From IMG/VR virus record IMGVR_UViG_3300035670_000033, positions 74,072-138,071 of that record: DNA of 64,000 nt; one strand, written 5' to 3'. Shown piece by piece: positions 5,657-24,498 of the stretch; position 1 is the first letter of the stretch; each line of letters begins with the position of its first letter. The stretch comes from a virus. The notes below the pieces were generated by a model. The model saw nothing but the letters and a program-made list of their open reading frames with translations. It had not been told where the DNA came from and ran no database searches. The translations under genes were made by a program, and so were the position numbers.

Positions 5657-6418
5657 CTAATCCTTGTCCTTAGAGTTCTTATATCGTTCAAGCATTCGTT
5701 TGCCTTTAGCGGCTAATTCCCTAGCATCATCCGCATTCTGTGGAACTGGTTCACCCCAAGCCGCCGCTGAAAGAGCAAGCCGAGTTGGGCGACCCTTTTC
5801 ATCTTTCATAGGACCAGAAGGATTGGTGAAGAACCGTGTAAGAAATGATCCCTTACGACGCATCTTTTCTGGTGTGTCAGCAGGACCCTTGACACCCGGC
5901 TTCAAATTGGATCCATCTGTTCTGTTGAAATGCGCACGACCCGCTGCGGTTAAACCACCTTTAGGGTCTCTCAGTGGTTTGGCAGATTTCTCTTTGACGA
6001 TCGGACCACCAGCAACCCACGCACGGCAAGTCCTTTTTGATGCACATTTGAAATCAAATGCTTCGCAATATCCAAGTTCGCCAGCGCTATCAATTGCTTC
6101 CCACTCATCCTGACGATCCCCGCCAGTTACACCTTTATTGATGCAGTCTTTCATTGAGGGTGTTTGAATGAAAAGTGAACAGTTACCGCACAATTGTTTT
6201 TTAGCGGAAGCATTATCAACGTCCCACTCTTTTGCTAACTTCCCCCAATACTCTGTGTTTGGTTCAGAAGGGTTGAGCGGACCATACATTGCTGTCTTTA
6301 TCGCTTTTCCTCTGTTGGCAAGGTTTACGGCAATGTCCTGTGTGGCTTTAGGGCAAGATTCTTCTGCCTTGACACGGATAGAAATCGGTTGACCGTTGAT
6401 TAAATCGGTAAATTTCAT
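5657..6418 (-). CDS. Two-domain head-region protein: Cys-rich domain plus basic domain (DUF6321-like from memory)
   Basis: LCGNC...DC...GYCEAFDFKCASKRTCRAW, followed by DPKGGLTAAGRAHFNRTDGSNLKP...RRKGSFLTRF. Confidence 0.7.
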   Translation of the reverse strand: MKFTDLINGQPISIRVKAEESCPKATQDIAVNLANRGKAIKTAMYGPLNPSEPNTEYWGKLAKEWDVDNASAKKQLCGNCSLFIQTPSMKDCINKGVTGGDRQDEWEAIDSAGELGYCEAFDFKCASKRTCRAWVAGGPIVKEKSAKPLRDPKGGLTAAGRAHFNRTDGSNLKPGVKGPADTPEKMRRKGSFLTRFFTNPSGPMKDEKGRPTRLALSAAAWGEPVPQNADDARELAAKGKRMLERYKNSKDKD

Positions 6419-7813: not shown

Positions 7814-7914
7814 GTTTTTCACTCCTAGTGAATTGGATTTGGTTGGTGATTACTTATGTTTCTTTATTGCAGACTTCGGTAAGCACCTAGTCCAGTTACT
7901 ATTACTGTAATACG

Positions 7915-7965: not shown

Positions 7966-9372
7966 CTATTTTGAACGGTATCTTTTAACCGCCTGTGGAC
8001 AGCATCCGCCAGCGTATTTAATACCGTATTCCCCTTCATCAAAACCAGCCCATTTTTTGGCTGTTTTACGGTTTTTCCATGGGTGGTCAATAGGCAAAAG
8101 ATCATTATCTTCCGAATATTTTACATCTTTGGGTTTTTCCGAGTTCAGCAAAGACAGGAACTTTGAGACCCGCTTATTCGCTTCTTCCCGACCGCCGTCA
8201 GCAAAACCTCTAACGAACACAACCTTAAGGTCGCGAAGGTTGGTTTTGGCAGAAGTTTTTGCTTTAGCATTATTTTTGCGCACCATAACAGCGAGATTAT
8301 TGATGTCTGTGCTTGTCACGGTTGGAGGCTTTTTCTTTGGCTTGGGTACACCTTTGTAAAAAAATATTCCGTCGTCCAGTACATCTTTTTGCGATCTTTT
8401 AGCCCCACGCGCAAGCATCACATCTCTCACATTTAGTTCCTCTGGAGTAACTACGTAAGGAAGTTTCTCTGCGCGACCTACTTCGTTAATGTGTTGTTGT
8501 ACTTCCTTGGGTGAAAGTTTATATTTGCGCGATGCGCGAAGGTATGCGAATTTTTGAATTCTGCGCATTTTTTTGGCGTATTCCTTGTCATCTTTGCTGA
8601 GACCTGAAGTTTTTACGATCTCATCAATTGATGATTTCCAATAATTCTTGACATCTTTTGCCTTGTCGTAATCTATTCGTGTTACAGAACGAGGTGCATT
8701 CGCTTCACGAGATGGGCTCTTGGGTGCATTTTGCCTTCTTCTCCGAACCATTTCTGCTTGATGTTCAGCAAAACTAAGGCGCTGTTTCTTCGGCTTGTTT
8801 GCTTTTGGTTTTGGCACTTTTGCTACAGGAATATTATCTTCGCCATCTGCACCCGTAGCGAAACCATCTCCGTCTCCGTCTTCAAGAGCACCCATCCCAC
8901 CGATCGGTTTGAACATTCTTCTATAACCACTGATTGAACGACCAAGCGCTTTTTCGTCCATTTCTGACTTCTTCTTAAACCCTGAACCTTGGCGTCGCGG
9001 ATTATTTATCGGACTGTTATCCCCGCGGATACCTGTGACACGGTTGTAATCAGAAACATTTGTACAAGGAAGCCAAACAAGTTTTCCATCGCGTGCCGTG
9101 TAACGGCGAATACCTATACATCCAAGGTTGCGTGCACGAATACGGGCAGACTCGGGGTCACTGAAAGTATCAGGATCTGTGGAACGGCTAACAAAGTTAA
9201 CGAAACCCTTTTCTTCTACAGGTTTCTCTAAAGTCTGCTTTTTATTCATGCCTTTGATGTACTCAGCAGGATTTTGATTTTTCACTATTGTAAAGTAATA
9301 AAAATCAGCCTTCTCATCAGGCGACAAGGTTTGTACGAGAATGGCTAATTCTCTTGATTCGGTAGGTGTCAT
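7966..9372 (-). CDS. Multi-module head-region protein
   Basis: ARNLGCIG..WLPC module, PIGG/DGDGDG module, degenerate copy of the start of the 9369 ART-like domain (PYVVTPEEL..ARG), and C-terminal LKVVFVRG..RVSKFLSLL..DNDLLPIDHP domain. Confidence 0.8.
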   Translation of the reverse strand: MTPTESRELAILVQTLSPDEKADFYYFTIVKNQNPAEYIKGMNKKQTLEKPVEEKGFVNFVSRSTDPDTFSDPESARIRARNLGCIGIRRYTARDGKLVWLPCTNVSDYNRVTGIRGDNSPINNPRRQGSGFKKKSEMDEKALGRSISGYRRMFKPIGGMGALEDGDGDGFATGADGEDNIPVAKVPKPKANKPKKQRLSFAEHQAEMVRRRRQNAPKSPSREANAPRSVTRIDYDKAKDVKNYWKSSIDEIVKTSGLSKDDKEYAKKMRRIQKFAYLRASRKYKLSPKEVQQHINEVGRAEKLPYVVTPEELNVRDVMLARGAKRSQKDVLDDGIFFYKGVPKPKKKPPTVTSTDINNLAVMVRKNNAKAKTSAKTNLRDLKVVFVRGFADGGREEANKRVSKFLSLLNSEKPKDVKYSEDNDLLPIDHPWKNRKTAKKWAGFDEGEYGIKYAGGCCPQAVKRYRSK

Positions 9373-10607
9373 ATGGTTTCCACAAATCCTTCTTCAACGG
9401 CGAGCATTGACCTATCCCATACAACAAAAAAATTGTCTTTAGTTAGAGCAGCCCTATGACCCTTAGCCGCGAAGAGACGACCAATATCGTCGTCTCCACC
9501 GAACTCACTTTTTCTACCGCTGTATCTCGCCTCAATCATTTCATCAAATTCTGATCTCTCTGTAACGGTGTTCGGGGGAATTGCCACCCTCATCACCGTT
9601 CCTTGCATCGCATTATTAATATAGGCGTATTGTCTAGCGGTTCTAAGGTCATCCGTAAAATAGATTCCATTAGCCTGATGACCCATACCCGCCCAGTAGT
9701 CACCTTCCATAAACTGTTTTGCCAACTGTTCAGATGTTGACAATCTATTATCAGGGGTGCCAGGTAAATCGGCGTTAAAAACATCCTTAATGCCTCGGTA
9801 AGCAATCGTCCAACCCTCTTGTTCCAACTGTTTCATTTTTTCAGACGAGACAACTTTTGGCTTGCCCGTAAAACCCTGTTTTTCCGCAATTATTTCAAGT
9901 TGGACATCTCCATATTGCTTTCCAGCAAGTTTGTATTCATTCGTTCGCTTTTTTATTTCTTTGTCGCCCTCTGATCTAACTTCAATAAAACCCCTATAGT
10001 TTCCAAAGTAAACTTTCAAATCGTCCGTAATGTCCTTGGCTCGCTTAAGTATTTTTTTAGTAGGGGCAGGAATATTGTCTTCTCCGTCAGGACCAGTAGT
10101 GAACCCGTCGCTATCGCCGTCAAACTCTGCTACACCACCAATAGGGCGACCTAAAGACTTGCCAGAAAACGAGCCAGTTACAAGCCCACCACCCGGCAAG
10201 GTTGCGATGCCAGTAATAGGTTTCTCGTCAAGGTTCTCCCAACCCCGTTTAGGTGCCTTGTGGTTGCAAACCGCATAATACTTTTTCCCTGCAAGCAGAA
10301 CAGTTCGTACACCACCACAACCACGAGCCTTAGAAATAGCAACAGCATCAGCACGATTCTCATAATATGCATCAGACTTTGTTTCTAAACGCTTGGTGCG
10401 TTGAACCATTTTCGGCAAAGGTTTTTTATTATTTGAAGCACGAACTTTTAAATACTCTTCTTTACCCTTTTTGATTCCCTCATATTCTTCGTGTGAGGCG
10501 CAAGGCATCCAACCAGCATCGGTCTCATGGGCTCCCTGACATCCAAGCATGCGGGCAACACGAAGCGCCTGATCCCTAGTGGTTTTATTCTTTTCGTCTT
10601 CAGACAT
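9369..10607 (-). CDS. Multi-module protein with C-terminal ADP-ribosyltransferase-like domain
   Basis: Two GCxG..(P/V)CxxH modules, PIGG/DGDSDG module, then AYRG...GHQANGIYFTDDLRTARQYA...VMRVAI resembling ART-fold domains on phage MuF proteins. Confidence 0.65.
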   Translation of the reverse strand: MSEDEKNKTTRDQALRVARMLGCQGAHETDAGWMPCASHEEYEGIKKGKEEYLKVRASNNKKPLPKMVQRTKRLETKSDAYYENRADAVAISKARGCGGVRTVLLAGKKYYAVCNHKAPKRGWENLDEKPITGIATLPGGGLVTGSFSGKSLGRPIGGVAEFDGDSDGFTTGPDGEDNIPAPTKKILKRAKDITDDLKVYFGNYRGFIEVRSEGDKEIKKRTNEYKLAGKQYGDVQLEIIAEKQGFTGKPKVVSSEKMKQLEQEGWTIAYRGIKDVFNADLPGTPDNRLSTSEQLAKQFMEGDYWAGMGHQANGIYFTDDLRTARQYAYINNAMQGTVMRVAIPPNTVTERSEFDEMIEARYSGRKSEFGGDDDIGRLFAAKGHRAALTKDNFFVVWDRSMLAVEEGFVETI

Positions 10608-10870
10608 TATTGTTTTTCTTTTTTAGATACTTTTTCAACCTCTGAAGCATATTCCATAGACATCGCGTACTGATCAAATAGTTCATCTATTTTGTCTGCA
10701 TTCTCTTTGTTCATCAGATACGAGACCATTGACTCAAGGTCACCATCTTTGCCATTTTCATTTGCATACCCGTAGGCAATGGCAATAATTTTAGAACGTG
10801 TCTCAGGGTTCTTTACTGTCGTTAGCAGTTGATTTTTGATTGAGTTTTTTTGTTCTGTTGTAAGTTTCAT
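10607..10870 (-). CDS. Small helical protein coupled to paralog A (candidate immunity/chaperone)
   Basis: 87 aa; TAATG stop-start overlap with the upstream gene. Confidence 0.7.
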   Translation of the reverse strand: MKLTTEQKNSIKNQLLTTVKNPETRSKIIAIAYGYANENGKDGDLESMVSYLMNKENADKIDELFDQYAMSMEYASEVEKVSKKEKQ

Positions 10871-13800
10871 TACGCCAACCTCGGTGGTTCCACCCGTATT
10901 CTAGGGCGAGCAATTTTTGGTTTCTTAGGGAGTTTCTGACCAATTTTTTGTTCAGCAAAAGATAGCGTTCCACCACCAAATCCAAGATTTGCTTTAAACC
11001 ATTGTTTCACATATTCCATTTTTTCCCTGTCGCCAGTAGGATCATCCAAAGCAAAGATTATGTCTTGATGCTGATACTGCTTACCACCTCGCGCCTGTGC
11101 GAGAATTGATTTAATTCTCGCATATTCTGCGTCATTGTTTATCAATCCGCCAGCACCAAAATCCTCATAAAATTTGAGAGGTGACTGAAGCACCTGTAGG
11201 TCTCTGTCTGCCAAGCCATAGTTTCTTTTGAATCCAACACGAGCCCAAACATATTGTCCATCATCGGCTGCGTTCACCATCGCCTTTGTGACACCTATTT
11301 GCTTCAGGTAAAGAAACGCGTGCTGGTTATAAATTGTTTGAATATCAGCGCCTCTATCTATTTTGCTTGTCACAAACATTGAATTTTGGCTTACCGTACC
11401 CTGCGATACGCTTACACTCCGAGACGATTTAGCGATTGCTGCTCTTATAACTTCACCGTTTGCGTTGATCTCGTCAAACGTAACCGAAATCTGAAACCCA
11501 TTTTGAGGAGACACTGTTGCGGTAGCACGGTAAAGTTTCCCGTTCTTGCCTTCAATTCTTTGGTGGGAATAAGCCTGTTTCAAGTACTCTGCCTTTTGCG
11601 GAGCAGTGAGTCTTCCCCATTTTACGGGTGTCATGTCTTCATATGGTGCACCACCGTTTGGGTGCCGTTGCTTAAGATACTTAGCAAGTTTCCCTTGACG
11701 ACGTTCAATCGCCTCGTTCACCTGATCATTGATCTTCTTCGCTACATCTTCTGGAAGCGGTCTAGGAATATTTGTTGCATCTGGATTGAAAACAAAACCT
11801 TGTTTCCTTCTTTCTGATGCTTTCCGTATTTCTGGTCCTAATGCTTCTATCAACTGAAGATGACCTTCATATTTGCCAATATCAGACTGTAATTGAGCAA
11901 TTTTTTTCATTGTCTCAACACGGTTGAATTCTTTTGCTTCTGGAGTATTTCCAATAGGTGAACGCATAAGTCTGAATTCTGCGCTTAGTTGTGTTTCTAA
12001 TTCGGTAAGTTTGGTTCGCACACCCGCGACACCACCTTGTGGTCTTACGTATCCGATATATTTTCTTTTTGCCTCGGTGACTAAAGCCGATACATCGGCA
12101 TCGGGGTTTGCTCGGAGCAAATCAGCAACTCTTGAAAGTTCTTTTTGAAAGTTCCGCACCGCTAGTTGGCGACCTTCATTTTGGTTGAACAATGCTTGAT
12201 CGGCTAGTAATCCAAGTTGTCCCAAAAGTTTTGGATCTTGCATTTGAAGCAATACTTCTTCAATCAGATCTTCATTTTCTTTTTTGAATTTGGCTGCTTC
12301 CATCTTTGGTGGAACATGCTTCAGTTCGTCTGGAACATCTCGGATATCGCGTGGCGATGGGGTGTCAACACTATTAGCGATCGGAGCGTCAACTGGAGGT
12401 TCTCCAGTACGGTTGGCGTCATAGATTTCCTGCCATGCGTCCCTGTAGTCTTTAATATATGTTTTAATGCGGGCAATATTTATTTCCTCGTCTTGCCTTC
12501 GTTCAATGAAGTCATTGTCAGAAAGTTCACCTCTAGCAATCGCTTGCTCTATACGCGCTATCCTTGCATCCGCTGCAACTATTTTTTGTGCGGCTTCAAC
12601 CAATTTCTGTCCGCGTCCAGCGCCAATGGGTGGGAAGTTGGCGGGGTCATTGATGATCATTATCCTGTCATTTGGCATGACATCATTTAAAACATAACCT
12701 TCAAAGTCTCTATCGTTAAGAACTTCATTCAGGTTAACCCTTTGTCCTGCACCACGCGCTCTATCCGCTCTGGCTTGGCGCATTCTTTCCGAGTTGGCAG
12801 CGTTGTCACTGTTGCCGGGTTGTGGGCGAGCGGGAGATGCCTCTGGTTTTGGTTTTCTGCGTTTAGGTCCTGCTACGGCACGACGCTCTTCCGATTCGGC
12901 ATCAAGTAGTGCACCAATATCGTTCCTGTCGGGGTTTGCCCTAGGGCGACGAGGTTTAACTACTTTTGGCTCAACAACTGAGCGTGGAGGCTGAAGACGC
13001 CTTACCTCTTCTTCCAACTTAACTATTTTTTCTCGTTGACGCCTGATTGCTTGTGGCGCCGCACTATTCTGTCGCATCATCTGCAACATGTCTCGTGCTT
13101 CGTTAAGATCACGCTCTGCTACTGCGAGCGGATCGGTCTCATTTGCTCGGCGTGTTGGTGCTTTAGGTTTCTTTGTTGCTTCAACTACGGCACGACGGCG
13201 ACGGCGAGCAGGCGCTTCACCAGTTCTTGGTGCACCCGGCTGTTCAATTTCGCGTTGCATTCTTCTTTGTTCTGATTCACGAAGATTTCCTTCACCTCGT
13301 GGTCTTGCAGGTTGACGTCTGCGAGCAGGGCGTGCAGGAGCATTGCGTCGTCTTAGTTCCGCCATTACTCGTTTGTAATCGTCGCTGTCTCTTCCGCCAG
13401 TAGCGTTCTCTAATTCGTCGCGCATTTCCTCTAAAACCTCTAGAGGTTCTGCGGCGAGAAGATTTGCTTCGTCACGGGCAGGGCGAGCGGGTGCTTGTCG
13501 TCTGCGTTGCGGACGAGGTGCAGGTGTTAACTCTCTAGGTGCTTCAGGTGTGTCAACCGACGGTGGTCGTGCAACAACAGTTCGCCTACGAGCGCCACGA
13601 GGACTAGGGGCATTCCCGCCATCCAGTCGCTCAGCAATACCACGTAAACCTTGCTCAAGACGACCAGCACCACCGCCTTGGGGGTTAAGTCTTGCAAGTA
13701 TTCGGCGTTCACGACGAGCAATACGACGACCACGGCGAGCATCATCAACATTTTCCAACCGTTGACCAATATCTGATATTTGATTAGCGATGCGTCGTGC

Positions 13801-14016
13801 GACCCCCCAACCGCAAGACCGACCAAAACGATCTGTTATCTGTCCACCATACCGTGTCCCCGTTGGACAGCGCCAGCCTCCACGACGGTTAGTGCCGGGG
13901 ATAGAAAGACTCGGATCCCACATGGCGCGAACAGCCTTGACTTCATAAGCAATAGTTGACGTGTTCCGTTCGCTAAGAAAAGATTTTGCCTTAAAGTCGG
14001 CGATATTCTGAAGCAT
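10870..14016 (-). CDS. Paralog A: shared RCPxG module, Arg/Pro linker, C-terminal GNAT-like domain
   Basis: VRAMWDPSLSIPGTNRRGGWRCPTGTRYGGQITDRFGRSCGWGVARRIANQI; C-terminal MFVTSKIDRGADIQ...KAMVNAADDGQYVWARVGF. Confidence 0.75.
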   Translation of the reverse strand: MLQNIADFKAKSFLSERNTSTIAYEVKAVRAMWDPSLSIPGTNRRGGWRCPTGTRYGGQITDRFGRSCGWGVARRIANQISDIGQRLENVDDARRGRRIARRERRILARLNPQGGGAGRLEQGLRGIAERLDGGNAPSPRGARRRTVVARPPSVDTPEAPRELTPAPRPQRRRQAPARPARDEANLLAAEPLEVLEEMRDELENATGGRDSDDYKRVMAELRRRNAPARPARRRQPARPRGEGNLRESEQRRMQREIEQPGAPRTGEAPARRRRRAVVEATKKPKAPTRRANETDPLAVAERDLNEARDMLQMMRQNSAAPQAIRRQREKIVKLEEEVRRLQPPRSVVEPKVVKPRRPRANPDRNDIGALLDAESEERRAVAGPKRRKPKPEASPARPQPGNSDNAANSERMRQARADRARGAGQRVNLNEVLNDRDFEGYVLNDVMPNDRIMIINDPANFPPIGAGRGQKLVEAAQKIVAADARIARIEQAIARGELSDNDFIERRQDEEINIARIKTYIKDYRDAWQEIYDANRTGEPPVDAPIANSVDTPSPRDIRDVPDELKHVPPKMEAAKFKKENEDLIEEVLLQMQDPKLLGQLGLLADQALFNQNEGRQLAVRNFQKELSRVADLLRANPDADVSALVTEAKRKYIGYVRPQGGVAGVRTKLTELETQLSAEFRLMRSPIGNTPEAKEFNRVETMKKIAQLQSDIGKYEGHLQLIEALGPEIRKASERRKQGFVFNPDATNIPRPLPEDVAKKINDQVNEAIERRQGKLAKYLKQRHPNGGAPYEDMTPVKWGRLTAPQKAEYLKQAYSHQRIEGKNGKLYRATATVSPQNGFQISVTFDEINANGEVIRAAIAKSSRSVSVSQGTVSQNSMFVTSKIDRGADIQTIYNQHAFLYLKQIGVTKAMVNAADDGQYVWARVGFKRNYGLADRDLQVLQSPLKFYEDFGAGGLINNDAEYARIKSILAQARGGKQYQHQDIIFALDDPTGDREKMEYVKQWFKANLGFGGGTLSFAEQKIGQKLPKKPKIARPRIRVEPPRLA

Positions 14017-14019
14017 GGT

Positions 14020-14337
14020 TTAAGCCTTAAAACTTTTTTTATTTGGAAGAGACTTAATTTGATTTTTATACATTTCTTCAGTTACTTGCCCATCAGAACT
14101 GTATTGTGCGGACATTGAATTAAGACGGTAAAGAATATATTCCATTCCGCTTCCCTCCAAAGGGATCTCGTTTCGTGCCGACGATTCTGAAAGAATTTCA
14201 ATAAGTTGATCAACAAGTTCTTTATCGGAAGCGTGTATTTCTACAAGTCCATCAATATTTTTTCCAGCGCAAGACCCATTTACCTTGTTTGTAAATGGAT
14301 CCATGAATTGACCTATAAAAAACTCTCTCATGATCAC
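14020..14337 (-). CDS. Small protein coupled to paralog B (candidate immunity)
   Basis: 105 aa; ATGA overlap with the paralog B stop codon. Confidence 0.7.
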   Translation of the reverse strand: MIMREFFIGQFMDPFTNKVNGSCAGKNIDGLVEIHASDKELVDQLIEILSESSARNEIPLEGSGMEYILYRLNSMSAQYSSDGQVTEEMYKNQIKSLPNKKSFKA

Positions 14338-17213
14338 CTTTGGTTACTTGGAATTATGTTGACTATCTCATTTTCGGCGTTGCGAAGGTTTGCAAGACTT
14401 CGTACCATGCCATCATAAAGTGCTCCTGCTCGGGCTTTATTTGAGTCAGTCTTACTTACTTTTTGCAATGCGTCTGTTATGAATTGTTCACGACCGACAG
14501 CAAGTGTTTTTTCTGTTTGCACAACAACCTGTCTGTACACTTCTTGAATTCGCGCATAAGTTTCACGCCTTTGCGCGGCTGACATAGCGGGTAGTGCGGT
14601 GCGCATAGTGGCAAGAATGTCCGTGTCCATACGAAAACCCCGTTGGTAACGATCAAATAGTCCTCCGTGATCCCTTCCAGCCCAACCCAAGTCCATCGGA
14701 ACGACATGCGCTAATTTCTTGCCGTCTGGTAATTCCACTACACGACCCATACCGTTGCCTCCGTGGCGGTCGCTAACACCAAGAATATAGTTGGCTAGAA
14801 CATTAGACAATCTTTCAGGAAGACCTTTATCTGGAAGGGCATTCAGGGCTCCTTTGTTGAAATCGTAGCCACCAGCAGCACCGCCGATTACTGCTCCTTC
14901 AGGCACGTCGTTGTGTGCCAGAGGGATCATGATGTAGGGGGTTCCTTTTCGGACTGTTCCAAGAGGCTTTCGTACATCTGCTTCAAGTTTACCGTCTTGA
15001 ATTGCTCCGTCTTCCAAGATCCCTACAGCAGCCAAGTAGTTCCATCCAATGAGTTCGCCGACATTGTCGGCAGGTTTTGCAGCCTTGAAAACCCATCCCT
15101 GATTAGTTGGATTTCCATTTTCATCACGCAAAAAGTAAATTTTAGTTACACCTACAGCGCCACCGTTGGGTTGTACTTTTTTGAAACGCTTATTCGTGTC
15201 TCGTGGATCTGATGAAGCGTTTGCTTCTATGGCAATGTGCATGAATTTTGCTGGAACCTTTTGTATGTCTCCACCATTTTTTATATGGTCAATCGCTTTT
15301 TGTTCCGTGTTAATTGTTCGGTCTTCTTCTGAAACAAATTTTCCAATTGGAGAATTCCGTCTATCTATCTTTAATTTGCCATGCGCATTTTTGCTTCTAG
15401 CAAATTTTCGGAAAGGAGATTTTTTTTGCTGTTTTGCTTGTTGCGCTTGCGGTGATGGTGGTGTCCTTGGCGTTGGTGGTTCAGGTGGTTCGCTATTTCC
15501 GTTGCTTAGATCCAAAAACTGTTGACTAAAATCGCGTAAGTAACGATTCAGTGACGCTTGACCCTGTGGACCTCGGTACTCTTGTTCTAGCGCGTCACCA
15601 TCAACGATATTTCTGGCTAGGAAACCACGAAATTTTCCGCTTTCTTGTGGGAGTAATTCAATTTCCCAGTTTCCTTTTTTCCATCTAGTTGAACCATCAG
15701 GTTGGTTAATAGCGTCCCAACCTTCTCCACCAAAATCGGGCATTCTTACATTTGCCCGTGCCGGTGCGCCTCCGTCCCCAGGTGTGACAAAACCGCGACC
15801 ATCTGGTGAGCGTCGCGGTTGGCGTGCAGGGCGTGCAGGGCGTGCAGGTGCTGGCTCGGGAATATCATTCGCTTGTGGTTTGCGTGATGCGCTACGACCA
15901 GCACCCTGTGCTGTTGCTTGCCGACGGCGACGACGGCTATTTTGTGGGCGACGATTACGAGGCGCTGGTGGTTCAAAATCTATTGGTGCTGAACGACCGT
16001 GTGCATCTTTCCAAGCATCGCGAAGATTATTTTTGTTGATCTCGTACCATTCACGGCGAGTCAACATTCCTGCGTTCCCGCCACCTTCGCGAATTTCTCG
16101 TACTCGTTTAGCGTATTCACCATATTTTCGTAATACATACGGTTTGAAATCTTCTGTTTCACCAGCGTCGGAAGCATCTCTTGCGGTGAGAACATCAACA
16201 TTTGCTGGTTGTGGTGCAACGCGCGGGCGTGCCTGTGGTCGTGCCTGTGGGCGTCGTTGTCCTGCTGGTGCTGGTCGGCGTGCAGGACGAGGTGTTGGTG
16301 CGGGTGTAGGCGCTGTTTCTGGTATTGCGTCACGACGACGGTTTCTCGGCACTCGTGCTGGTGCCTCAACTTCAGGTGTTTCGTCGTTGCGTCGTCCACC
16401 TCTATTGACTCTTCGGTTAATAGCACCCGCTAAACCTTCATTGTTTACCCTGTCCAACAAATTCCCTCGCCGTGGGGACTCACCTCCCTCAAGGCGATCA
16501 GCGATATTCCGCAGACCGCCTTCAACCCGACCAGTTTCCGCAACTCCGCCAAGCCTTCTCATCATTCGTGCGTTACGGCGATCAAGACGACGCTTCCGTT
16601 TGTCATCATCTCGTTGTTCTAAGCGTTCGCCAATGTCAGCAATTTGGTTTGCAATTCGTCGCGCAACTCCCCATCCGCACGAACGACCAAAACGATCTGT
16701 TATCTGTCCGCCGTATCTTGTGCCTACAGGGCATCGGAAACCGCCACGGCGGTTAGTGCCGGGGATGGAGAGGCTTGGATCCCAAACTGCACGAACACCT
16801 TTGATTTCAAAATGCGCTGACGAACGAGTTTGGTCAGAAATAAAAGAAGATGCTTTAAAAGTCAAAACATTTTTGAACTCTTCGTTAGAAAACTCAGAAA
16901 GCAAAACTTCAGAAATAGATAAAACTGGCAGGTTTTTGAATTCCATCGGCTCACTTTGAATATGTGCAAGTGAAGCAACTTTTTTCTGAACTGCTGTTCC
17001 TGATGGGCTCGGACCTTCAATTATTTTGGATGCATCCATTGACTGAACTAGTTCAGGCTTAGTGATTGGGGTGTCGGCGTATTCTTCGCGGAGTATCCCA
17101 ACAAGTTCCTTTGCATCTTCCGTCATCGGTTTGAATGTGGATCCCTTGGGGGTCGTTGAAACAACCATAAATGGTGTGTTGTCACGGTTCTTGATAATGA
17201 AAACTAGGTTCAT
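14334..17213 (-). CDS. Paralog B: shared RCPxG module, Arg/Pro linker, HipA/PI3-PI4-kinase-like domain
   Basis: Same N-terminal module after a ~115 aa extension; C-terminal GGAVG, WVFK, GELIG, ILGVSDRHGGN, VPMDLG. Confidence 0.8.
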   Translation of the reverse strand: MNLVFIIKNRDNTPFMVVSTTPKGSTFKPMTEDAKELVGILREEYADTPITKPELVQSMDASKIIEGPSPSGTAVQKKVASLAHIQSEPMEFKNLPVLSISEVLLSEFSNEEFKNVLTFKASSFISDQTRSSAHFEIKGVRAVWDPSLSIPGTNRRGGFRCPVGTRYGGQITDRFGRSCGWGVARRIANQIADIGERLEQRDDDKRKRRLDRRNARMMRRLGGVAETGRVEGGLRNIADRLEGGESPRRGNLLDRVNNEGLAGAINRRVNRGGRRNDETPEVEAPARVPRNRRRDAIPETAPTPAPTPRPARRPAPAGQRRPQARPQARPRVAPQPANVDVLTARDASDAGETEDFKPYVLRKYGEYAKRVREIREGGGNAGMLTRREWYEINKNNLRDAWKDAHGRSAPIDFEPPAPRNRRPQNSRRRRRQATAQGAGRSASRKPQANDIPEPAPARPARPARQPRRSPDGRGFVTPGDGGAPARANVRMPDFGGEGWDAINQPDGSTRWKKGNWEIELLPQESGKFRGFLARNIVDGDALEQEYRGPQGQASLNRYLRDFSQQFLDLSNGNSEPPEPPTPRTPPSPQAQQAKQQKKSPFRKFARSKNAHGKLKIDRRNSPIGKFVSEEDRTINTEQKAIDHIKNGGDIQKVPAKFMHIAIEANASSDPRDTNKRFKKVQPNGGAVGVTKIYFLRDENGNPTNQGWVFKAAKPADNVGELIGWNYLAAVGILEDGAIQDGKLEADVRKPLGTVRKGTPYIMIPLAHNDVPEGAVIGGAAGGYDFNKGALNALPDKGLPERLSNVLANYILGVSDRHGGNGMGRVVELPDGKKLAHVVPMDLGWAGRDHGGLFDRYQRGFRMDTDILATMRTALPAMSAAQRRETYARIQEVYRQVVVQTEKTLAVGREQFITDALQKVSKTDSNKARAGALYDGMVRSLANLRNAENEIVNIIPSNQR

Positions 17214-17337
17214 TGTTTACTTTCCACATTTGTGAAGGCATTGAGCAAGCCCTGTAAGTCTTGCGTCGCAATATCGCTACTGTAAAATGGTATCACTAAC
17301 GGCAGATATCAAAATTATGACACTGTAAACATATTAT

Positions 17338-17631
17338 TTATTTGTCTAATTTTTTGTGCCCTAATTGAATAAGAAAATTATCAATTTTCTCTTTGCTTGA
17401 ACCCTCGTATTTTAATATTTCTGCATTGAGGTAAGAGTACCCATGCAACATGTTTTCAAGAGTCGCCATCTTGGGGGAATTCTTCTTCATAGTTAGGAAA
17501 TGCTCATTATCTCGTTTGTCGTTATCGCGATTTTTTGAGTAATAAGTGATAATCCCCTTATCGTCTTCCACCAAAACAATTGGGGAAGCCTGAACCAGTG
17601 GATCCTTAGAGGTGATGATTGCCGCTCTCAT
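17338..17631 (-). CDS. Small protein directly after paralog C (candidate immunity)
   Basis: 97 aa; starts 5 nt after the paralog C stop. Confidence 0.7.
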   Translation of the reverse strand: MRAAIITSKDPLVQASPIVLVEDDKGIITYYSKNRDNDKRDNEHFLTMKKNSPKMATLENMLHGYSYLNAEILKYEGSSKEKIDNFLIQLGHKKLDK

Positions 17632-17636
17632 GATAT

Positions 17637-20501
17637 TTACAATCCTAATAGCAAGTCGGCGATCCTTGATGGATCAACATCGGTCAAATATTTCATTTTC
17701 TTTTGTGGTCTTTCGCCAATTCTGACAACAGCCTGATCTCCAGCCCTTGGATTCGGTGTTCCATCTCCGCCTGTTTTTAGAACATCATTAACCATATTCA
17801 AATATGGGTTTTTTCTTTCGGCTTCGCGAATAGATTTCTGCACATCGGCAACCGCGGCTATTACCTCACGCCTACTCAGTCTCCCCTGTCTAACCTGTTC
17901 GCGAAGAGTTGAAAGCATGTCGTTTCGTCCACCACCGTAACTATCTCGTAGCCACCCTACAAAACCAGCGTCGTCGCCATCAAATGCTTCAAATGCTCTA
18001 CCTCCCCAGTTGACATCAAAACCAAGAGATGGGTCAATTGGAACAAATCGGAGTTTCCCGTTCGCGTCTGGCGCAACAAAAAAGTTACCACCGTGACGAT
18101 CTCTATTAACAATTACAAAGTCCATTAATGTCGCACGAACACGATCAGACGGCTTTATGTCGCCCATATTCGCAACGTCTCTTCCCAATCGCAGTCTTCC
18201 TTCAACATAGTTTCCTGCGTGTTCGTAAACTATTGCGCGACCACCGCTATGTGGTACACCATTCCCGCCTTTTTGTTTGCCGTCTAGTCGCAAACCACCA
18301 ACGGGCATGCCGAAACGACCTGCGAGATTATTGCCGACCATTTCGTGAATATCTTCGTTTTCCGCCTGTGCACCAGCCTGATATTTAAGGAAATACTGTT
18401 TCCCTGTTACGGAATCCGTAAACATGTGCATGTTGTCAGGGATCATTCCGTTAACTCCACCACCAGCATCCTGTTTGCTGAATCTATTCGTCGCACCATG
18501 TAACGCTTCTCCCAAGAATTCGTCTGGTACGTCGGCTAAATCTCCACCTTGTTCTAGGTGAGCGATTGCTTGTCCCTTGGTGTCAATTCCTTTATTTCCC
18601 ACAGGAACGCTTTTCACGTCAGGGAGACCATCTTCTCCTTTGGAATTTAGTTTCTCTGGTGCGTGATCTTGCTTCGCTGAAGGTGGAGAAACATCCCAAC
18701 CTCCTTCGGGCTCTGGTATTTCCGCTGGTCTATCAGGTGGGCGGACTGGAGGTTGTACTCGTGGGGCATTAGGGGCTTCAACATTGTTGTTGGCAACAAC
18801 AGGAGGTCTTTGCCTGAAGGCAATATCCGCCTCAATTTCAACAGCCCTTAATTCAGCAGCGGCAACATTCTCTTTAATTTTTTCTTTTTGCGCCCATGAT
18901 CGCAATAAATTCTCTCGGGCTTCATCTCTTTCTCTTTGATTTCCGTTTTTCTTAGAACGCCAGTCGTCGTATGCTTTATCAAAACCAGTTTGTGCCTGTT
19001 TCAAAAGGTCTTGATATTCATTTTTTTTGCCTAAAACTTGTTCCCTTGACAGGTTGCGCAAATTGTTGTAGGCGTTTGGCTTGTATCTTGCAACTTCATC
19101 TTTGACTATTTTGACCAAATCTTTATCTCCCGGCTGGTCAAACTCTGCATCTGGGTTTATGTCTCTTGCAGGAATCGGTGGTGGACCTGCTGGTCGTGCG
19201 GGTGCTTTTGGTGCGGGCGCTGGCGGTGCAGGCTGTGGCGCTCCTGCCTGTTGTGCAAATATTTGTTGGTTAACAAAATTGCCACGAGCATTACGCTTAT
19301 TGTTGTCACCGTAATAGCGACCGAACCTTCTTTCTAGTTCGGCTCTCTCTTCACCTTCAGGGAAATCTGGTTTACGCCAATACGCATCTTCGGGTAGCCC
19401 GCGAAGATCACCGAAACGGTTACGAACATTGCGAATAGAAGCAGCGTCTGGAACGCTTCCACCCAACTCGTCTGCTGTTGGATTCCATGCGGGTGGATCA
19501 GGAATTGGTGTTGATGGTTTCTGTTGTTCTGGCGGTTTTGGTGCAGGTTTTCTGCGTGGCACCTTCGTCGGTTCGGGTTTAGCACTGTCAACAAAATCTG
19601 CTTCAGGCTTTCTTCTTGCTGTTCGTTTCGCGCCCTGTTGTGCTGCGGCTCGTCGTCGGCGTCGTGGAGCATTCGGTCTTGGTGGTTCACCTGTACGCGG
19701 TGCGCCGGGTTCAACTAATTCTCGTTCCATTCTTCGTGCTTCAGATTCGCGAAGGTTCCCTTGTCGGCGAGGTGCTTTTTTACCTCTACGATTCAGTTCC
19801 GCGTTAACTTTGTCTAGACGTTGCCGTGCGGTAGATCTTTGAACACTGACAGGGAGCATACCGATTCTTCCGTCATCACGAGGTTTGTCCACTGCGTCTC
19901 GCAGAATGTCAACTGCTCGTTGTGCGTCTTGATACTGTTTTTCTAGATCTTCATCACTCATAGTGCGAAGGTTCTCTACATATGGATCTTTGTCATCTCG
20001 TCTCGGAAGTGCGGGAATATCGCGAGTTGGCATTACTGGACGGGCTGGAGGTTGCGCAGGGATTCTTGGGCGTGCTGTTGGTCGTGCCTGTTGCGGAGCC
20101 TGTCCACCCTCAAGTGCTTCTGCAATATTTCTTGCACCACGCTCAAGAAAACCTGGCTTGTTCTGACGAGCCAACATTCGTTGTACACGAGCATTGCGTC
20201 TTGCCAAACGGTCGTTTCGTTTGCGGTCATCAATGTTTTCTAAACGCTCACCGATATCTGCGATTTGGTTTGCAATACGACGTGCAACACCCCATCCGCA
20301 TGAGCGACCAAATCTGTCGGTTATCTGTCCACCGTAACGGGTGCCAACCGGGCATCGCCATCCTCCGCGACGATTCGTTCCGGGGATAGAAAGACTCGGA
20401 TCCCAAATCGCTCTAACGCCTTTTACTTCATAACTGAAAGTACTGGATGTTTGTTCAGAGAGGAAAGTAAGAGCCTTAAAATTTACTTCGTTTTTGAGCA
20501 T
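17637..20501 (-). CDS. Paralog C: shared RCPxG module, Arg/Pro linker, HipA/PI3-PI4-kinase-like domain
   Basis: Same N-terminal module; C-terminal GGGVNG, YFLKY, HEMVG, DFVIVNRDRHGGNF, VPIDPSLG. Confidence 0.82.
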   Translation of the reverse strand: MLKNEVNFKALTFLSEQTSSTFSYEVKGVRAIWDPSLSIPGTNRRGGWRCPVGTRYGGQITDRFGRSCGWGVARRIANQIADIGERLENIDDRKRNDRLARRNARVQRMLARQNKPGFLERGARNIAEALEGGQAPQQARPTARPRIPAQPPARPVMPTRDIPALPRRDDKDPYVENLRTMSDEDLEKQYQDAQRAVDILRDAVDKPRDDGRIGMLPVSVQRSTARQRLDKVNAELNRRGKKAPRRQGNLRESEARRMERELVEPGAPRTGEPPRPNAPRRRRRAAAQQGAKRTARRKPEADFVDSAKPEPTKVPRRKPAPKPPEQQKPSTPIPDPPAWNPTADELGGSVPDAASIRNVRNRFGDLRGLPEDAYWRKPDFPEGEERAELERRFGRYYGDNNKRNARGNFVNQQIFAQQAGAPQPAPPAPAPKAPARPAGPPPIPARDINPDAEFDQPGDKDLVKIVKDEVARYKPNAYNNLRNLSREQVLGKKNEYQDLLKQAQTGFDKAYDDWRSKKNGNQRERDEARENLLRSWAQKEKIKENVAAAELRAVEIEADIAFRQRPPVVANNNVEAPNAPRVQPPVRPPDRPAEIPEPEGGWDVSPPSAKQDHAPEKLNSKGEDGLPDVKSVPVGNKGIDTKGQAIAHLEQGGDLADVPDEFLGEALHGATNRFSKQDAGGGVNGMIPDNMHMFTDSVTGKQYFLKYQAGAQAENEDIHEMVGNNLAGRFGMPVGGLRLDGKQKGGNGVPHSGGRAIVYEHAGNYVEGRLRLGRDVANMGDIKPSDRVRATLMDFVIVNRDRHGGNFFVAPDANGKLRFVPIDPSLGFDVNWGGRAFEAFDGDDAGFVGWLRDSYGGGRNDMLSTLREQVRQGRLSRREVIAAVADVQKSIREAERKNPYLNMVNDVLKTGGDGTPNPRAGDQAVVRIGERPQKKMKYLTDVDPSRIADLLLGL

Positions 20502-22217
20502 TTACGATTTCTTTCGCTCTTTCGCGAGGTCGGGTTTGATGAATGTTTCGTAAAGCCAGCGCGGAGCCTTTCGCTTGACACCATCAGTACCAGTGTATTC
20601 AACAAGTTGAAGTGCATCTGGAATCTCACCACTGTCAACATTGAATTTGAATGCGCCTTCTGACGCGTTAGCAAAATCTTCAATATTTTTTATGATGTTG
20701 TCTTTGTTGCTTGACTCGGCAAGAGAGTTAATCATTCGCGGAAACTTTCGCTTCTCACCGATAGTGAAAGGACGTGATCGTTCAATACTGATGCTCACAC
20801 CGTTGGGCGCAACGAAAGCAATTTTACTCATTGAAGGACCACCCAATAGCGCTAGGTCATCAGCACCTATGTCAGATGGAAGTTGAACTGCGCGAACCAT
20901 TGCACCGTCAACCATGTCAGGGTTCTCACTGAAGGAACGCAAAACCGATGATGGAACTACAGGGCGAAGAACCACTCCATCTCTGCGGATCATTCGTCCT
21001 TCGCCTCGTGGAGCACCCTTCAAAAGACTCACCGCATCCGACACAGACTTGCCGAACCTATCTTTTTGGAAAGCACCTGTTCTTGGTATTTGCGCCATGC
21101 GTTGAATCTGTATGGTGCGCGTATTGCTTGGATTTCCTTCTAATACTTCAGAAAGGTTTTCTGCTCGTGCTTGTGGAAGTCGTGTGGTTGCCCCTCGTAC
21201 CGCGCGAGCGGCTAGTGCGAGTGGTCCTGGTATTTCAAACAGTTGCGCACCACAGGTTGAAAAACGGTTGTCCGTGAATCGTCCACCATATTCAAAACCA
21301 GCAGGGCATCGTGCTTGACGCTTGCGATTGGGCTTTAGTCTACTTAACGCTCCACCGCCCCCACCGGGTACGAGTGCACCATAAACTCGTGAACGGATAG
21401 GTGATGTAAGTGGTGAAATGTTCCCCGGCGTTAGTGCAGAACCAACGGCTTGTGCCGCTCTGCCTGCCGTGCTTCCAGAACCTATAAGTCCTGCTTTCGT
21501 TTCCATGTCCTCTGCATCGTCTTTGCCGACACGGTATCCACCACCACGTTTTTTATATTCACGAACAAGCCAAGCATTAGCGTAAGCAGATGGGTATACA
21601 TTGAATTTCTTTTTTGCTTCTGCTTTGACCCGTGCATAAAGTTCAGGGTCTGTGGGGATATTTTCGCTCTTGAATTCTTCTCCATCGGACTTAAATGTGG
21701 AGACATTGATCGGCTTGTTTTCTTCCCGATCTCCTGTTGTTTCTGCTCGTCGTTTTCTGCGTACCGCTGAATCAATTTCTTCCGCAGACATTTTCATGGC
21801 GGTAGATTTCTTTACACACTTAGGGTATTTACCTGAATCTGCGTCCCCGCGACCGCAAGGTTCAAAACCGCCACCTTTTTTAGGGCGTGAAATGTCAACC
21901 CATTCTTCTTCAAACCATTTGCCCAAACCACCACGCTTGGTTTCATCACCGACGAATGTTTCTGCACCGAGCCTTGAGGAGCGAGACTTCAGGTAAAGTT
22001 TTGCTTTGAAGTTTAGAAGAGTTCTGCTTCCGTCAAGTGGAGTTTTACGAACATCTGATCCTTTAGTAAAAAGGAATTTTGTTTTCGCATTATCAGGATT
22101 AAAATAAAGTTCCTCACCCGAGACAATATTTGTGCGTTTCATGGCAGTTTTCATGCGCATGGACATACGGAGTTTCCTTGCGAAATACTCAAAGTCTTGG
22201 TTGAGGTAGTTGCTCAT
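20502..22217 (-). CDS. Multi-module head-region protein with divergent RCPxG module
   Basis: GGLGKWFEEEWVD..PCGR..YPKC domain, LYARVKAEAKKKF.VYPSAYA..LVREYKKRGGGY domain (DUF5872-like from memory), RCPAGFEYGGRFTDNRFSTCG. Confidence 0.75.
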   Translation of the reverse strand: MSNYLNQDFEYFARKLRMSMRMKTAMKRTNIVSGEELYFNPDNAKTKFLFTKGSDVRKTPLDGSRTLLNFKAKLYLKSRSSRLGAETFVGDETKRGGLGKWFEEEWVDISRPKKGGGFEPCGRGDADSGKYPKCVKKSTAMKMSAEEIDSAVRRKRRAETTGDREENKPINVSTFKSDGEEFKSENIPTDPELYARVKAEAKKKFNVYPSAYANAWLVREYKKRGGGYRVGKDDAEDMETKAGLIGSGSTAGRAAQAVGSALTPGNISPLTSPIRSRVYGALVPGGGGGALSRLKPNRKRQARCPAGFEYGGRFTDNRFSTCGAQLFEIPGPLALAARAVRGATTRLPQARAENLSEVLEGNPSNTRTIQIQRMAQIPRTGAFQKDRFGKSVSDAVSLLKGAPRGEGRMIRRDGVVLRPVVPSSVLRSFSENPDMVDGAMVRAVQLPSDIGADDLALLGGPSMSKIAFVAPNGVSISIERSRPFTIGEKRKFPRMINSLAESSNKDNIIKNIEDFANASEGAFKFNVDSGEIPDALQLVEYTGTDGVKRKAPRWLYETFIKPDLAKERKKS

Positions 22218-22345
22218 TTTGTCAGTTCTTTAGGTGCTAATTGATCTGGCAGGGATTTTCCCATTGCATACTGGGCACCAACCCGCTATCTAAAGAATAT
22301 CAGGTTGATGCCTTCTTGAATATTTGCGTACTTAGACAGTGGCTT

Positions 22346-22546
22346 TCAGCCGTCTTGTTTTACTGGCTCCCAATATCCTCGGGAAAGAACCGAGTCAATC
22401 ATGACTTCCGTTTGGACGCCGTTCCCCATTTGTATGAAACCCATTCTCCTAGACACACCTTCCACAGGGCTGTCATGGGTGTAAAAAAGTTTATCGTTAC
22501 CCCTGTTGGCTATGTGCTGATTGTTGACTAAGTGCTGATTTTTCAT
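22346..22546 (-). CDS. Small protein coupled to the DUF3626-like gene (candidate immunity)
   Basis: 66 aa ending VMIDSVLSRGYWEPV; ATGA overlap. Confidence 0.6.
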   Translation of the reverse strand: MKNQHLVNNQHIANRGNDKLFYTHDSPVEGVSRRMGFIQMGNGVQTEVMIDSVLSRGYWEPVKQDG

Positions 22547-24219
22547 ACAGGCGATTCTTCCTCTACTAATTCTTGTTCTGTCTTCACCACATCCATAATT
22601 GTCCCCGACTGCACATCAAACTTTTGATTTTTCCTTACAGGTGCGACACGAATGCCTGCTTTTTCAAGTTTTTCTCTGATGGTTTCAAAGTCTTTTTCGG
22701 TGACACTGTTACCAAACGGATCGTTGTCGTCAACGGCGATAACGGCAAATTCAACGTCTCCTGTGGATACGCCTCCGTGCAATTGTGCTTCCGCATACTC
22801 AATTTTGTATGGACTCCAAACCGCATCTGCGCTTGGTGTGCCAATAGGTGCTGGTTTGTAGGTAGGTCTTCCGAGACTGTCTCCACCTGTATATGTTGAG
22901 CGCGACTCAATGTCTTTTTTCATCATCAACTGAATGGCACCATAAGTTCTGACTTCGGTCAACGAATCACGGTCAACCTTCCCGTTCTGTGTGAGATATC
23001 CGTAAATAGGACGCTTTGACGGCTCAACACTTGGGTGGTACCCCAACTGAACAGCCTCTGATTGTGCGCGTTGACCAAAATCCAAAGTACCCATAGATGT
23101 ACCTGTTTCAAACTGCGATTTGAAACGACCAGATTCAAGTATCTTGTCCAAAACATCGGGTTGTACTGCAATTGTCACGCGCGAGTTTTCTATGGTTTCT
23201 TTCGCTGTTTGCAAACGACGCTCTTCACTAAAGTTTTCATCAAAGGCGGTGACGTTTCCGGCTCTAGTTTGCGCCTGCCATCTTTTGTGTCTGAGTAAAT
23301 CAACTTGTGCTTCAACAATTATTTTTGTTTCATCTGAATTGAAACCTAGATTTCCGTATTCAGTTGTTGCTATTTTCGCGTAGGCGTCCATCAGATCTGT
23401 TACTTCGCTGTCTGTTGTATTTGGATCTTGAATTAACGGCAAAGAACGATCATATTTATCTTGTACTGAACTTGGGAAAGTCCCAACTAGAAGCATCTTC
23501 AATGGTCTTCCAGTTTCCTTTGCTTCGGCGATGTCATCTGTTGGGGTGCGAACATCATCAAGTTCTTTTTCTTTTTCTTTTTTATCTTTACGCCTTTTCA
23601 GGCTTGCTAGCACAAAGTTTCTTGCGTCAACCGCAGCATCTTTTTTGAGTTTTGACGCAACCGCTTCCAACTGTTCTTTTTTCTTGTCAGATATTTTGCC
23701 TCGTTTATGTAGCGAATCAGAAGCAAAATCCAATAGTTGCCCCCCACCAACCCTTAATAGCATCGCGCTCATGAGTGTGGAATCAGTAAGAGAACCTGAA
23801 CCGTCTACATGCATATAATCTAATGTTTGTAAAGCCAAGAGCGCTGTTGCTTTTGCGCCATTCCTTATATTTTCGTTTTTTAGGATGCCTCTAGCACCAT
23901 CAATGAGTTTCCCAGCCATAGAAGCCGCCCCGCGGGCTGCTGATTCAGCAGAAGGTGTAAGACAGTTTGACATTTGCATGTCGGTAAATTGGTTCGCATT
24001 TGGAGTTCCGGGCGGGCATCGTAGTTTGCCTGATGAGTCAACAATAACACCAGCGGCTCGCGCTGCTCTTACTCCAACAGAACCTAGTTCGGGTTTATCT
24101 TTGATCGTCGGACCAAGAAAACCTTTGAATAAAAGAATGTTATCTTGGACAACTTTCACCGACTGAAAATAGTCGGCTACTCTCTCGTTTGCGTCAAATG
24201 CGCGAGACGATTTGCTCAT
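22543..24219 (-). CDS. Paralog D: divergent RCPxG module plus C-terminal DUF3626-like domain
   Basis: LRCPPGTPNANQFTDMQMSNC; C-terminal GRFKSQFETGTS, RPIYGYL, YG...RSTYTGGDSL, YAEAQLHGGV; SD GGAGGAG before ATG 24219. Confidence 0.72.
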   Translation of the reverse strand: MSKSSRAFDANERVADYFQSVKVVQDNILLFKGFLGPTIKDKPELGSVGVRAARAAGVIVDSSGKLRCPPGTPNANQFTDMQMSNCLTPSAESAARGAASMAGKLIDGARGILKNENIRNGAKATALLALQTLDYMHVDGSGSLTDSTLMSAMLLRVGGGQLLDFASDSLHKRGKISDKKKEQLEAVASKLKKDAAVDARNFVLASLKRRKDKKEKEKELDDVRTPTDDIAEAKETGRPLKMLLVGTFPSSVQDKYDRSLPLIQDPNTTDSEVTDLMDAYAKIATTEYGNLGFNSDETKIIVEAQVDLLRHKRWQAQTRAGNVTAFDENFSEERRLQTAKETIENSRVTIAVQPDVLDKILESGRFKSQFETGTSMGTLDFGQRAQSEAVQLGYHPSVEPSKRPIYGYLTQNGKVDRDSLTEVRTYGAIQLMMKKDIESRSTYTGGDSLGRPTYKPAPIGTPSADAVWSPYKIEYAEAQLHGGVSTGDVEFAVIAVDDNDPFGNSVTEKDFETIREKLEKAGIRVAPVRKNQKFDVQSGTIMDVVKTEQELVEEESPV

Positions 24220-24231
24220 CGTCTCCTCCAA

Positions 24232-24498
24232 CTATTCTTTGCTGGTTTCTGTCGCTTTTGTAAGTGTGGAAAGTGGAACAACATCATCATCCTCTACTGC
24301 TTTTTTAGGAGCCTTCTTCGTTTCCACTTTTTGCTCTACGACAACTTCTTGCTCAACAGTTTCTTCTTTTACTTCAACTTCAATAACCGCAGGAGTATCT
24401 ACCACAACAACATCTGGTGTTGGCTGTATTTCTTCCTTGGTATCAAAGGTTAAGCCAGAAGTACTGACTGAATCATTGATTTGGTTTTTCTTTTTCAC
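24232..24498 (-). CDS. Small low-complexity (V/E/K) protein
   Basis: 88 aa ORF overlapping the upstream stop. Confidence 0.6.
   Translation of the reverse strand: MKKKNQINDSVSTSGLTFDTKEEIQPTPDVVVVDTPAVIEVEVKEETVEQEVVVEQKVETKKAPKKAVEDDDVVPLSTLTKATETSKE

Follow-up and report, generated by a model that had tools for sequence, protein, structure and literature searches.

The window analysed here, a 64-kb stretch of DNA that forms the right-hand part of a 138-kb IMG/VR record (IMGVR_UViG_3300035670_000033, estimated to be 97% complete), comes from an uncultured freshwater (lake) actinophage of ~138 kb. Its head operon contains an array of five minus-strand genes (P0001 to P0005) that probably represents a novel means by which exchangeable enzymes are loaded into a virion. 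On balance, the array is best read as a set of paralogous cargo proteins of the head operon, each of which combines a module that serves as a tag, a basic linker and a C-terminal domain (the tip, in most cases an enzyme); four of the five are accompanied by a putative inhibitor, and the proteins would be packaged and injected into the next host.

The module genes and their place among the head genes

The array genes and their small partners are listed below in minus-strand gene order, with nucleotide (nt) positions in the window and amino acid (aa) positions in the proteins.

22543-24231, minus: P0005, with a RCPPGTPNANQFTD..C core (~aa 70) followed by a DUF3626 (SopF-family) tip
22346-22546, minus: s66, a 66-aa open reading frame (ORF) that shares 4 nt with the P0005 stop and may be the partner of the DUF3626 tip
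20502-22217, minus: P0004 (phrog_23735), with a DUF5872 N-terminal part (Pfam E 4e-14), a Gly-rich spacer, a diverged core (~aa 302) and an uncharacterised C-terminal domain
17637-20501, minus: P0003, with the module (nt 20217-20501; aa 1-95), an Arg/Pro-rich linker and a PI3K/HipA-like kinase tip (nt 17640-18581; aa ~641-954)
17338-17631, minus: s97, cognate small partner of the P0003 kinase tip, a conserved family
14334-17213, minus: P0002, with an N-terminal extension (folded over aa 1-85), the module (aa ~106-221), linkers and a PI3K/HipA-like kinase tip (nt 14337-15371; aa 615-959)
14020-14337, minus: s105, small partner gene overlapping the P0002 stop by 4 nt
10870-14016, minus: P0001, with the module (nt 13732-14016; aa 1-95), an Arg-rich linker, a helical region and a GNAT-fold tip (nt 10921-11598; aa ~807-1032)
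10607-10870, minus: s87, small partner gene that shares 1 nt with the P0001 stop and 1 nt with the g412 start

A preliminary description of this DNA had placed a shared N-terminal module in P0001, P0002 and P0003, assigned P0004 and P0005 to the same group as members with a diverged core, named the tips as GNAT-like, HipA/PI3-4K-like (twice) and DUF3626-like, and located MuF on the portal protein, with a different module as the constant part of the array proteins. All of these assignments hold: the ~95-aa module is found at each of the three minus-strand positions described, Pfam places MuF on the portal, and the tips are confirmed by their folds, catalytic residues and Pfam matches. The strongest part of the module reads WDPSLSIPGTNRRGG-RCPxGTRYGGQITDRFGRSCGWGVARRIANQI. 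The copies in P0001-P0003 are 74-81% identical in aa sequence, with no more than three positions differing among them in the 48-aa core from WDPSLS to RIANQI, and a tblastn search of the phage's own genome with the P0003 module gave matches at E 8e-53 and 1e-50 (80-81% identity). At the DNA level the copies share ~69-70% nt identity, with nonsynonymous divergence (dN) of ~0.2 and saturated synonymous divergence (dS). Because high aa identity is combined with this nt identity, low dN and saturated dS, the copies are old paralogues under strong purifying selection, neither recent duplicates nor products of gene conversion. P0004 and P0005 both keep only the RCPxG..(G)xFTD..C core (RCPAG..FTD..C in P0004), and their pairwise BLASTP matches are modest (E 4e-6 for P0004 and 4e-3 for P0005); the P5-family core is present in 121 of the 121 family members examined.

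The module has 449 homologues in a set of 5.8 billion proteins. The 269 representatives obtained by clustering at 50% are 750-4528 aa long, and all of them carry the module at or near the N-terminus. Searches with the module gave no match in Pfam (E<=0.1), in PHROGs, in the PDB or by tblastn among 50,697 phage records; the ESM Atlas gave no feature match and only structural neighbours with template-modelling (TM) scores <0.5; and neither the module nor the array turned up in literature searches. Among 185,579 bacterial and archaeal genomes there was one weak match (48% identity over 31 aa of the core), on a 3.8-kb contig (JBIKZP010000309.1) of a lake metagenome-assembled genome labelled Rhodoferax sp., which is probably a mis-binned viral fragment. 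A fifth weak match in the window (1085-1186, plus strand; E 0.006) was rejected as chance, the ORF being TTG-started, of low complexity and non-coding in appearance.

The array lies between the following head genes.

30630-31991: large terminase, divergent to the minus-strand head block
28223-30433, minus: portal protein (Pfam Phage_portal, E 1e-48) fused to a C-terminal MuF domain (aa 640-729; Phage_Mu_F, E 2.5e-7)
26031-28160, minus: S78 (HK97-type) prohead protease with a long acidic C-terminal extension (Peptidase_S78, E 2e-11; phrog_80)
24495-25976, minus: g493, an acidic, Cys-rich conserved head-block protein, found in nearly all related loci that span the position; no Pfam or PHROG family above cut-off
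9369-10607, minus: g412, with a DUF3721 N-terminus, conserved, between the array and the capsid gene
7966-9372, minus: g468, conserved, between the array and the capsid gene; it has an N-terminal motif in common with g412 that differs from the array module
6500-7822, minus: HK97-fold major capsid protein (Pfam Phage_capsid, E 5e-46), in which a ~160-aa N-terminal region precedes the Pfam domain

In addition, g88 is placed beside g493, upstream of P0005 in minus-strand gene order. The preliminary description expected homologues of the module to be linked to head genes, and they are: homologues of portal, protease, g493 or capsid occur within the 10-kb flanks in 46 of 49 IMG/VR module loci, the remaining three being short contigs. 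The order conserved in these loci is portal, protease, g493, P5, P4, one to three module genes, g412/g468 and capsid.

Enzyme tips, small partner genes and cassette exchange

The P0002 kinase tip is a confident C-terminal domain in the full-length AlphaFold2 (AF2) model (predicted local distance difference test, pLDDT, >90), and Foldseek relates its fold to PI3K catalytic domains (E 5e-4) and to CtkA, the HipA-like kinase of H. pylori (TM 0.40-0.42 by target). Across diverged homologues of the P0002 type, the ATP-binding K710 and both R816 and H817 of the DRHxxN loop are invariant, and E720 of helix C, D815, N820 and the metal-binding D841 are conserved in at least 90%; in the alignment of the P0003 type, K706, E716/E720, D801, R802, H803, N806 and D823 are invariant. 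Precomputed PF00454 assignments exist for several kinase orthologues and for many P5-family tips. In the AF2 model of P0001 (aa 430-1048, pLDDT 90) a long helical region is followed by a GNAT fold. The top 50 VIA-align matches of this tip are all GNAT-type acyltransferase domains (Z 7.5-9.2; root-mean-square deviation 2.4-4.8 A over 103-145 residues), the toxins TacT, AtaT and GmvT being among the GNATs aligned, and Foldseek also relates it to GNAT (E about 0.01, probability 1.0); Pfam gave no GNAT match. The tip of P0005 matches DUF3626 (PF12294) at E 6e-10 and 39 bits, against a cut-off of 27, over profile positions 18-117 of 301. The Salmonella effector SopF belongs to DUF3626 (PMC6682159) and is an ADP-ribosyltransferase (PMC10333799); PDB searches with the P0005 tip, by single sequence or DUF3626-tip profile, did not reach the SopF entries, and single-sequence PDB searches with the kinase and GNAT tips returned nothing useful. 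The AF2 models contain one enzyme domain per protein, and the seven longest homologues scanned (1826-4528 aa) have no further Pfam domains.

Downstream of four of the five array genes lies a small gene, which overlaps its large neighbour by 1-4 nt or is separated from it by 5 nt; large and small gene are translationally coupled. The small genes are real conserved families, in which no helix-turn-helix (HTH) or known antitoxin family was found; s66 had no family match. Tip subfamilies, defined at 35% identity over at least 150 aa (single-linkage clustering was discarded, as it merged all kinases), map to small-gene families one-to-one or one-to-two, as listed here with counts that include closely related loci and are not independent events.

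Tip cluster 0 (kinase): small-gene family S1 (s97) or S4
Tip cluster 1 (GNAT): small-gene family S0 (s87), 20 of 21 cases
Tip cluster 2 (kinase): small-gene family S2 (s105), 10 of 10 cases
Tip cluster 3 (kinase): small-gene family S6 or S10
Tip cluster 4 (kinase): small-gene family S3 or S9

A single common family of small partners was considered and rejected, as hhalign links only S3 with S9 (95%) and S6 with S10 (88%), the rest reaching at most about 22% probability. The predicted complex of the P0003 kinase (aa 625-954) with s97 has an interaction prediction score from aligned errors (ipSAE) of 0.84, a mark that 58 of 80 solved complexes and 2 of 110 mismatched pairs attained, and the best control scored 0.00; at least 85% of contacts are common to the runs, and the pLDDT of the partner is at least 86. 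The predicted interface covers K706, D801, H803-N806 and D823, which form the active-site cleft. The model supports, but does not show, binding of s97 in the cleft of the P0003 kinase, and on this modelling we read the small partner as a putative cognate inhibitor.

The extension of P0002 (aa 1-105; 16899-17213, minus strand) is predicted with confidence to be a small folded domain (AF2, pLDDT ~95). In other loci it is a stand-alone ORF of ~97 aa or is fused to a g412 homologue, and its profile has weak similarity to the small-partner family S3 (probability 22%).

Recombination swaps the tip and the small gene between phages as a single cassette. Compared with the closest relative (L007), in which shared segments are 86-96% identical in nt sequence, three segments have no detectable nt similarity: 22239-23578 (the P0005 tip and s66), 17301-18732 (the P0003 tip and s97) and 14017-15842 (the end of the P0002 linker, the tip and s105). 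The breakpoints fall within the linker and a short way ahead of the next gene; in P0005, homology to L007 ends within the gene, at 23579. The converse case is another locus (L017), in which the P0002 tip and s105 are 94.7% identical and the flanks merely 75-81%. Among P5-family proteins, N-termini that are 67-90% identical precede tips that differ, being DUF3626, PI3/4-kinase or at least three others of unassigned type, for which Pfam gave no new domains. An identical P3 module is found with kinase subfamilies that are unlinked at 35% identity, and N-terminal types, with or without the extension, are also recombined with tip types.

This exchange bears on the claim of the preliminary description that the array is a polymorphic effector system, which stands as regards the constant module, the variable enzyme tips, the cognate small genes and the linkage to head genes, and fails as regards hypervariability of the tips. 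The C-termini of homologues are not invariant, since they are exchanged; the tip repertoire is nonetheless narrow, with only two superfamilies, which goes part of the way towards the invariance that the preliminary description would have counted against itself. Tip diversity lies mainly in the kinases, which form several subfamilies unlinked under the definition given above, in the P5 tip types (roughly five or more) and in P4, of which distant orthologues carry a kinase tip.

The linkers between module and tip are disordered and strongly basic (14-20% Arg, 11-17% Pro, net charge +10 to +27) and range across homologues from a few hundred to about 4000 aa; in P0002 the AF2 model has disordered linkers plus two small domains between module and tip. 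The charge, composition and highly variable length of the linkers, together with the finding of no Pfam domains in those of the seven longest homologues scanned and the position of the array where scaffold genes normally lie, would also suit structural internal head or scaffold-like proteins, in which the linkers neutralise DNA or set pressure and the tips are secondary or inactive. We consider this quite unlikely: deep divergence has left the catalytic residues of the kinases invariant or almost so, horizontal exchange of tip-partner cassettes is typical of conflict genes and not of scaffolds, and the ~160-aa N-terminal region of the capsid protein or the acidic tail of the protease could themselves serve as scaffold.

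Proposed packaging and delivery into the next host

Under the cargo reading, the enzymes would be made late, within the head operon, each with a private inhibitor, and the small protein lodged in the active-site cleft would keep the enzyme silent in the producer cell. The module would tie the protein to an invariant component of the head, by which it would be loaded into the prohead. From there the enzyme would enter the next host together with the DNA and modify host proteins for takeover or counter-defence. A private inhibitor and late expression from the head operon fit a cargo that acts in the next host and not in the producer. We infer from gene position and by analogy that the proteins are loaded into the prohead, trimmed by the protease and injected, and the targets of the enzymes are likewise putative. 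A stronger proposal, to which we give somewhat less than even credence, is that the RCPxG module is a new capsid-loading (perhaps ejection) domain of HK97-type heads that makes the cargo programmable in lytic actinophages abundant in fresh water, any tip attached to it being packaged and injected and the inhibitor staying behind.

The preliminary description had also proposed protease cleavage sites FK/A and E[VI]K/[AG], with the slash marking the cut. Apart from a weak resemblance to a conserved C-terminal motif of the protease, these are not supported. A search of the head block for [EQ][VIL]K[AGS] found 9 occurrences in ~9000 residues, against roughly 3-4 expected by our own estimate, which is unconvincing, and only the site in the C-terminal part of the protease is conserved. 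The protease motif, [ED][VI]K-AGRV[IL]N.RN (~aa 600-615, in the acidic extension), occurs in ~18 of 25 distinct homologues, including ones that are just 46-56% identical. The module sequence EVK[GA]VRA[IVM]W weakly resembles the EVKAGRV of the protease, and by this likeness the two could be a shared capsid-binding or cleavage element.

Elsewhere, the kinase fold of the tips is joined to an HK97-type portal, and very large actinophage proteins contain it too, one of them annotated as an ADP-ribosyltransferase. In the cultured Gordonia phage Hanem, which is related by its capsid (OP867024.1, 12049-17044), genes for an RNA ligase, a VIP2-like ADP-ribosyltransferase toxin and a 971-aa hypothetical protein sit between the portal and the protease/capsid genes, which suggests, by analogy, that enzymes in the portal-capsid interval are a wider habit. 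The portal-fused kinase fold and the Hanem enzymes, together with T4 Alt and the MuF fusions described below, support by analogy a cargo destined for the next host.

The same enzymes could instead act late in the cytoplasm of the producing cell, in superinfection exclusion or late host physiology, and never be packaged, the module serving for oligomerisation, nucleic-acid binding or localisation. The presence of module proteins in virions is unproven, the module and linkers are basic enough (isoelectric point 10.3-11.9) to bind DNA or RNA, and a nearby deacetylase of the histone deacetylase type, together with a weak phosphatase-like gene, would be in keeping with a write-erase circuit inside the cell. 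Action in the producer is nevertheless unlikely in our view: in 46 of 49 loci the array keeps its place among the portal, protease and capsid genes, a portal fusion with the same kinase fold exists, and a dedicated active-site inhibitor, as predicted here, would serve little purpose for an enzyme that acts where it is made.

Several observations weigh against the cargo reading. There is no cultured relative, and packaging of the module proteins is unproven. The predicted fold of the module has moderate confidence (AF2 pLDDT 50-75) and the module has no detectable relative of known function in Pfam, PHROGs, the phage records or the ESM Atlas, and these two points leave its role in loading conjectural. 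The last 300 residues of 305 distinct module proteins belong to just two tip superfamilies, kinase and GNAT-like, and so narrow a repertoire would be as natural for conserved accessory enzymes as for toxins. P0004 lacks a small partner gene, and the tip-partner counts include closely related loci. The kinase tips of the window score 14 bits against the PF00454 cut-off of 27. In P0001 the acetyl-CoA loop position is occupied by IDRGADIQ, non-canonical by eye when compared with Q/RxxGxG/A, and because the canonical loop is not seen, the GNAT-like tip may be inactive.

The phage encodes two WhiB genes, its capsid protein is 46-56% identical to counterparts in Gordonia and Brevibacterium phages, and no tyrosine integrase (Phage_integrase) was found in the 97%-complete genome; therefore its host probably belongs to the Actinobacteria and its lifestyle is probably lytic. 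This matters for the comparison with MuF toxins (Jamet et al. 2017, PMC5576092), which share with the array the head-gene context, a conserved N-terminus presumed to direct the protein to the capsid, a variable C-terminal domain and a tip-specific small gene. MuF toxins belong to temperate phages, whereas the phage described here is apparently lytic and its module family has essentially no members in cellular genomes; MuF is on the portal (PF04233 has no match in P0001-P0005 at E<=0.1), and the RCPxG module, which is unrelated to it, forms the constant part; and there are up to five tandem paralogues with narrow, kinase-dominated tips. The array thus works like the MuF toxins but lacks two of their defining features, MuF on the toxin and a temperate context. 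A classical polymorphic toxin-immunity system, released from prophages for competition between bacteria as proposed for MuF toxins, would account for the constant N-terminus, variable tip and cognate small gene, and GNAT and HipA-like kinase tips are known toxin types. It is a very improbable explanation here, given the lack of an integrase, the near absence of the module from the bacterial and archaeal genomes searched, the occurrence of all 49 homologous loci on viral contigs (46 of them with head genes) and the lack of MuF domains on P0001-P0005.

The polyvalent proteins (Iyer et al. 2017, PMC5512222) are similarly large, lie beside the portal-terminase head genes, are predicted to be packaged and injected, and carry kinase, GNAT and ADP-ribosyltransferase effectors for which cassette-like recombination has been raised as a possibility. 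They combine at least two effector domains in one polypeptide, whereas each array protein has one and the valency is spread over a gene array; their Ser/Thr kinases are truncated, whereas the kinases here are PI3K/HipA-like with a full C-terminal helical part; and the tips here, unlike theirs, have cognate small partners. One precedent for late synthesis of a host-modifying enzyme that is packaged in the head and injected with the DNA is the ADP-ribosyltransferase Alt of phage T4 (PMC5512222). The candidate tag of the array differs from that of Alt and the other T4 internal proteins in being a conserved domain of ~95 aa in an HK97-type system with an S78 protease. In T4, internal proteins have an N-terminal tag of ~10 aa that binds the scaffold core of the T4-type head and directs loading, and that is removed by the prohead protease. 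We know of no inhibitor partner of Alt. HipA-HipB, the TacT/AtaT toxin-antitoxin pairs and CtkA resemble the array in having kinase or GNAT folds each paired with a small neutralising partner, inhibition being a prediction here. In contrast to the HipA-HipB and TacT/AtaT enzymes, those of the array are not stand-alone proteins but C-terminal domains of ~1000-aa head-operon proteins, with partners that lack an HTH or known antitoxin family.

If the proteins are packaged, a large clade of uncultured lake phages of ~100-145 kb delivers kinases, acetyltransferase-like and SopF-like enzymes at infection, and the recipients would be actinobacterial hosts. The array would then be a virion-borne analogue of polymorphic toxin-immunity systems serving host takeover or counter-defence, and the cassette logic of polymorphic toxins, in which a tip and its cognate inhibitor are recombined, would extend to lytic phages. 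A new, strongly conserved loading tag would join the very few known (the capsid-targeting sequence of T4 and MuF) and would be usable for loading foreign cargo into HK97-type capsids, and PI3K/HipA-like kinases and a GNAT-like domain would gain small predicted active-site inhibitors from at least five families unrelated in sequence. For virion proteomics on the viral fractions of fresh water, these proposals offer a specific hypothesis.

Neighbouring genes

Directly downstream of the capsid gene are a DUF6321 protein (5657-6418, minus; E 3e-31) and a staphylococcal-nuclease homologue (5247-5654, minus; E 5e-13); DUF6321-like sequence is fused to the protease in several relatives. Farther along, a gene of the histone-deacetylase family (2301-3248, plus; Pfam Hist_deacetyl, E 2e-18) adjoins a dual-specificity-phosphatase-like gene (1770-2297, plus) whose match is weak (E 1e-3, below cut-off). 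These two genes could be erasers that match the kinase and GNAT tips.

The C-terminal half of g412 (9369-10007, minus) was considered as an R-S-E ADP-ribosyltransferase on the strength of YRG and STS seen by eye and was rejected, as Pfam, PHROGs and PDB sequence searches gave no support. Cys-containing DUF3721-like repeats are common to g412 and g468. Both of these proteins share with g272 (4076-4894, minus) a motif of ~30 aa, G(R/Q)PIGG...DGDGDG..TG.DGEDN.P; the three genes flank the capsid gene and otherwise differ, and the motif could be a second tag for association with the head.

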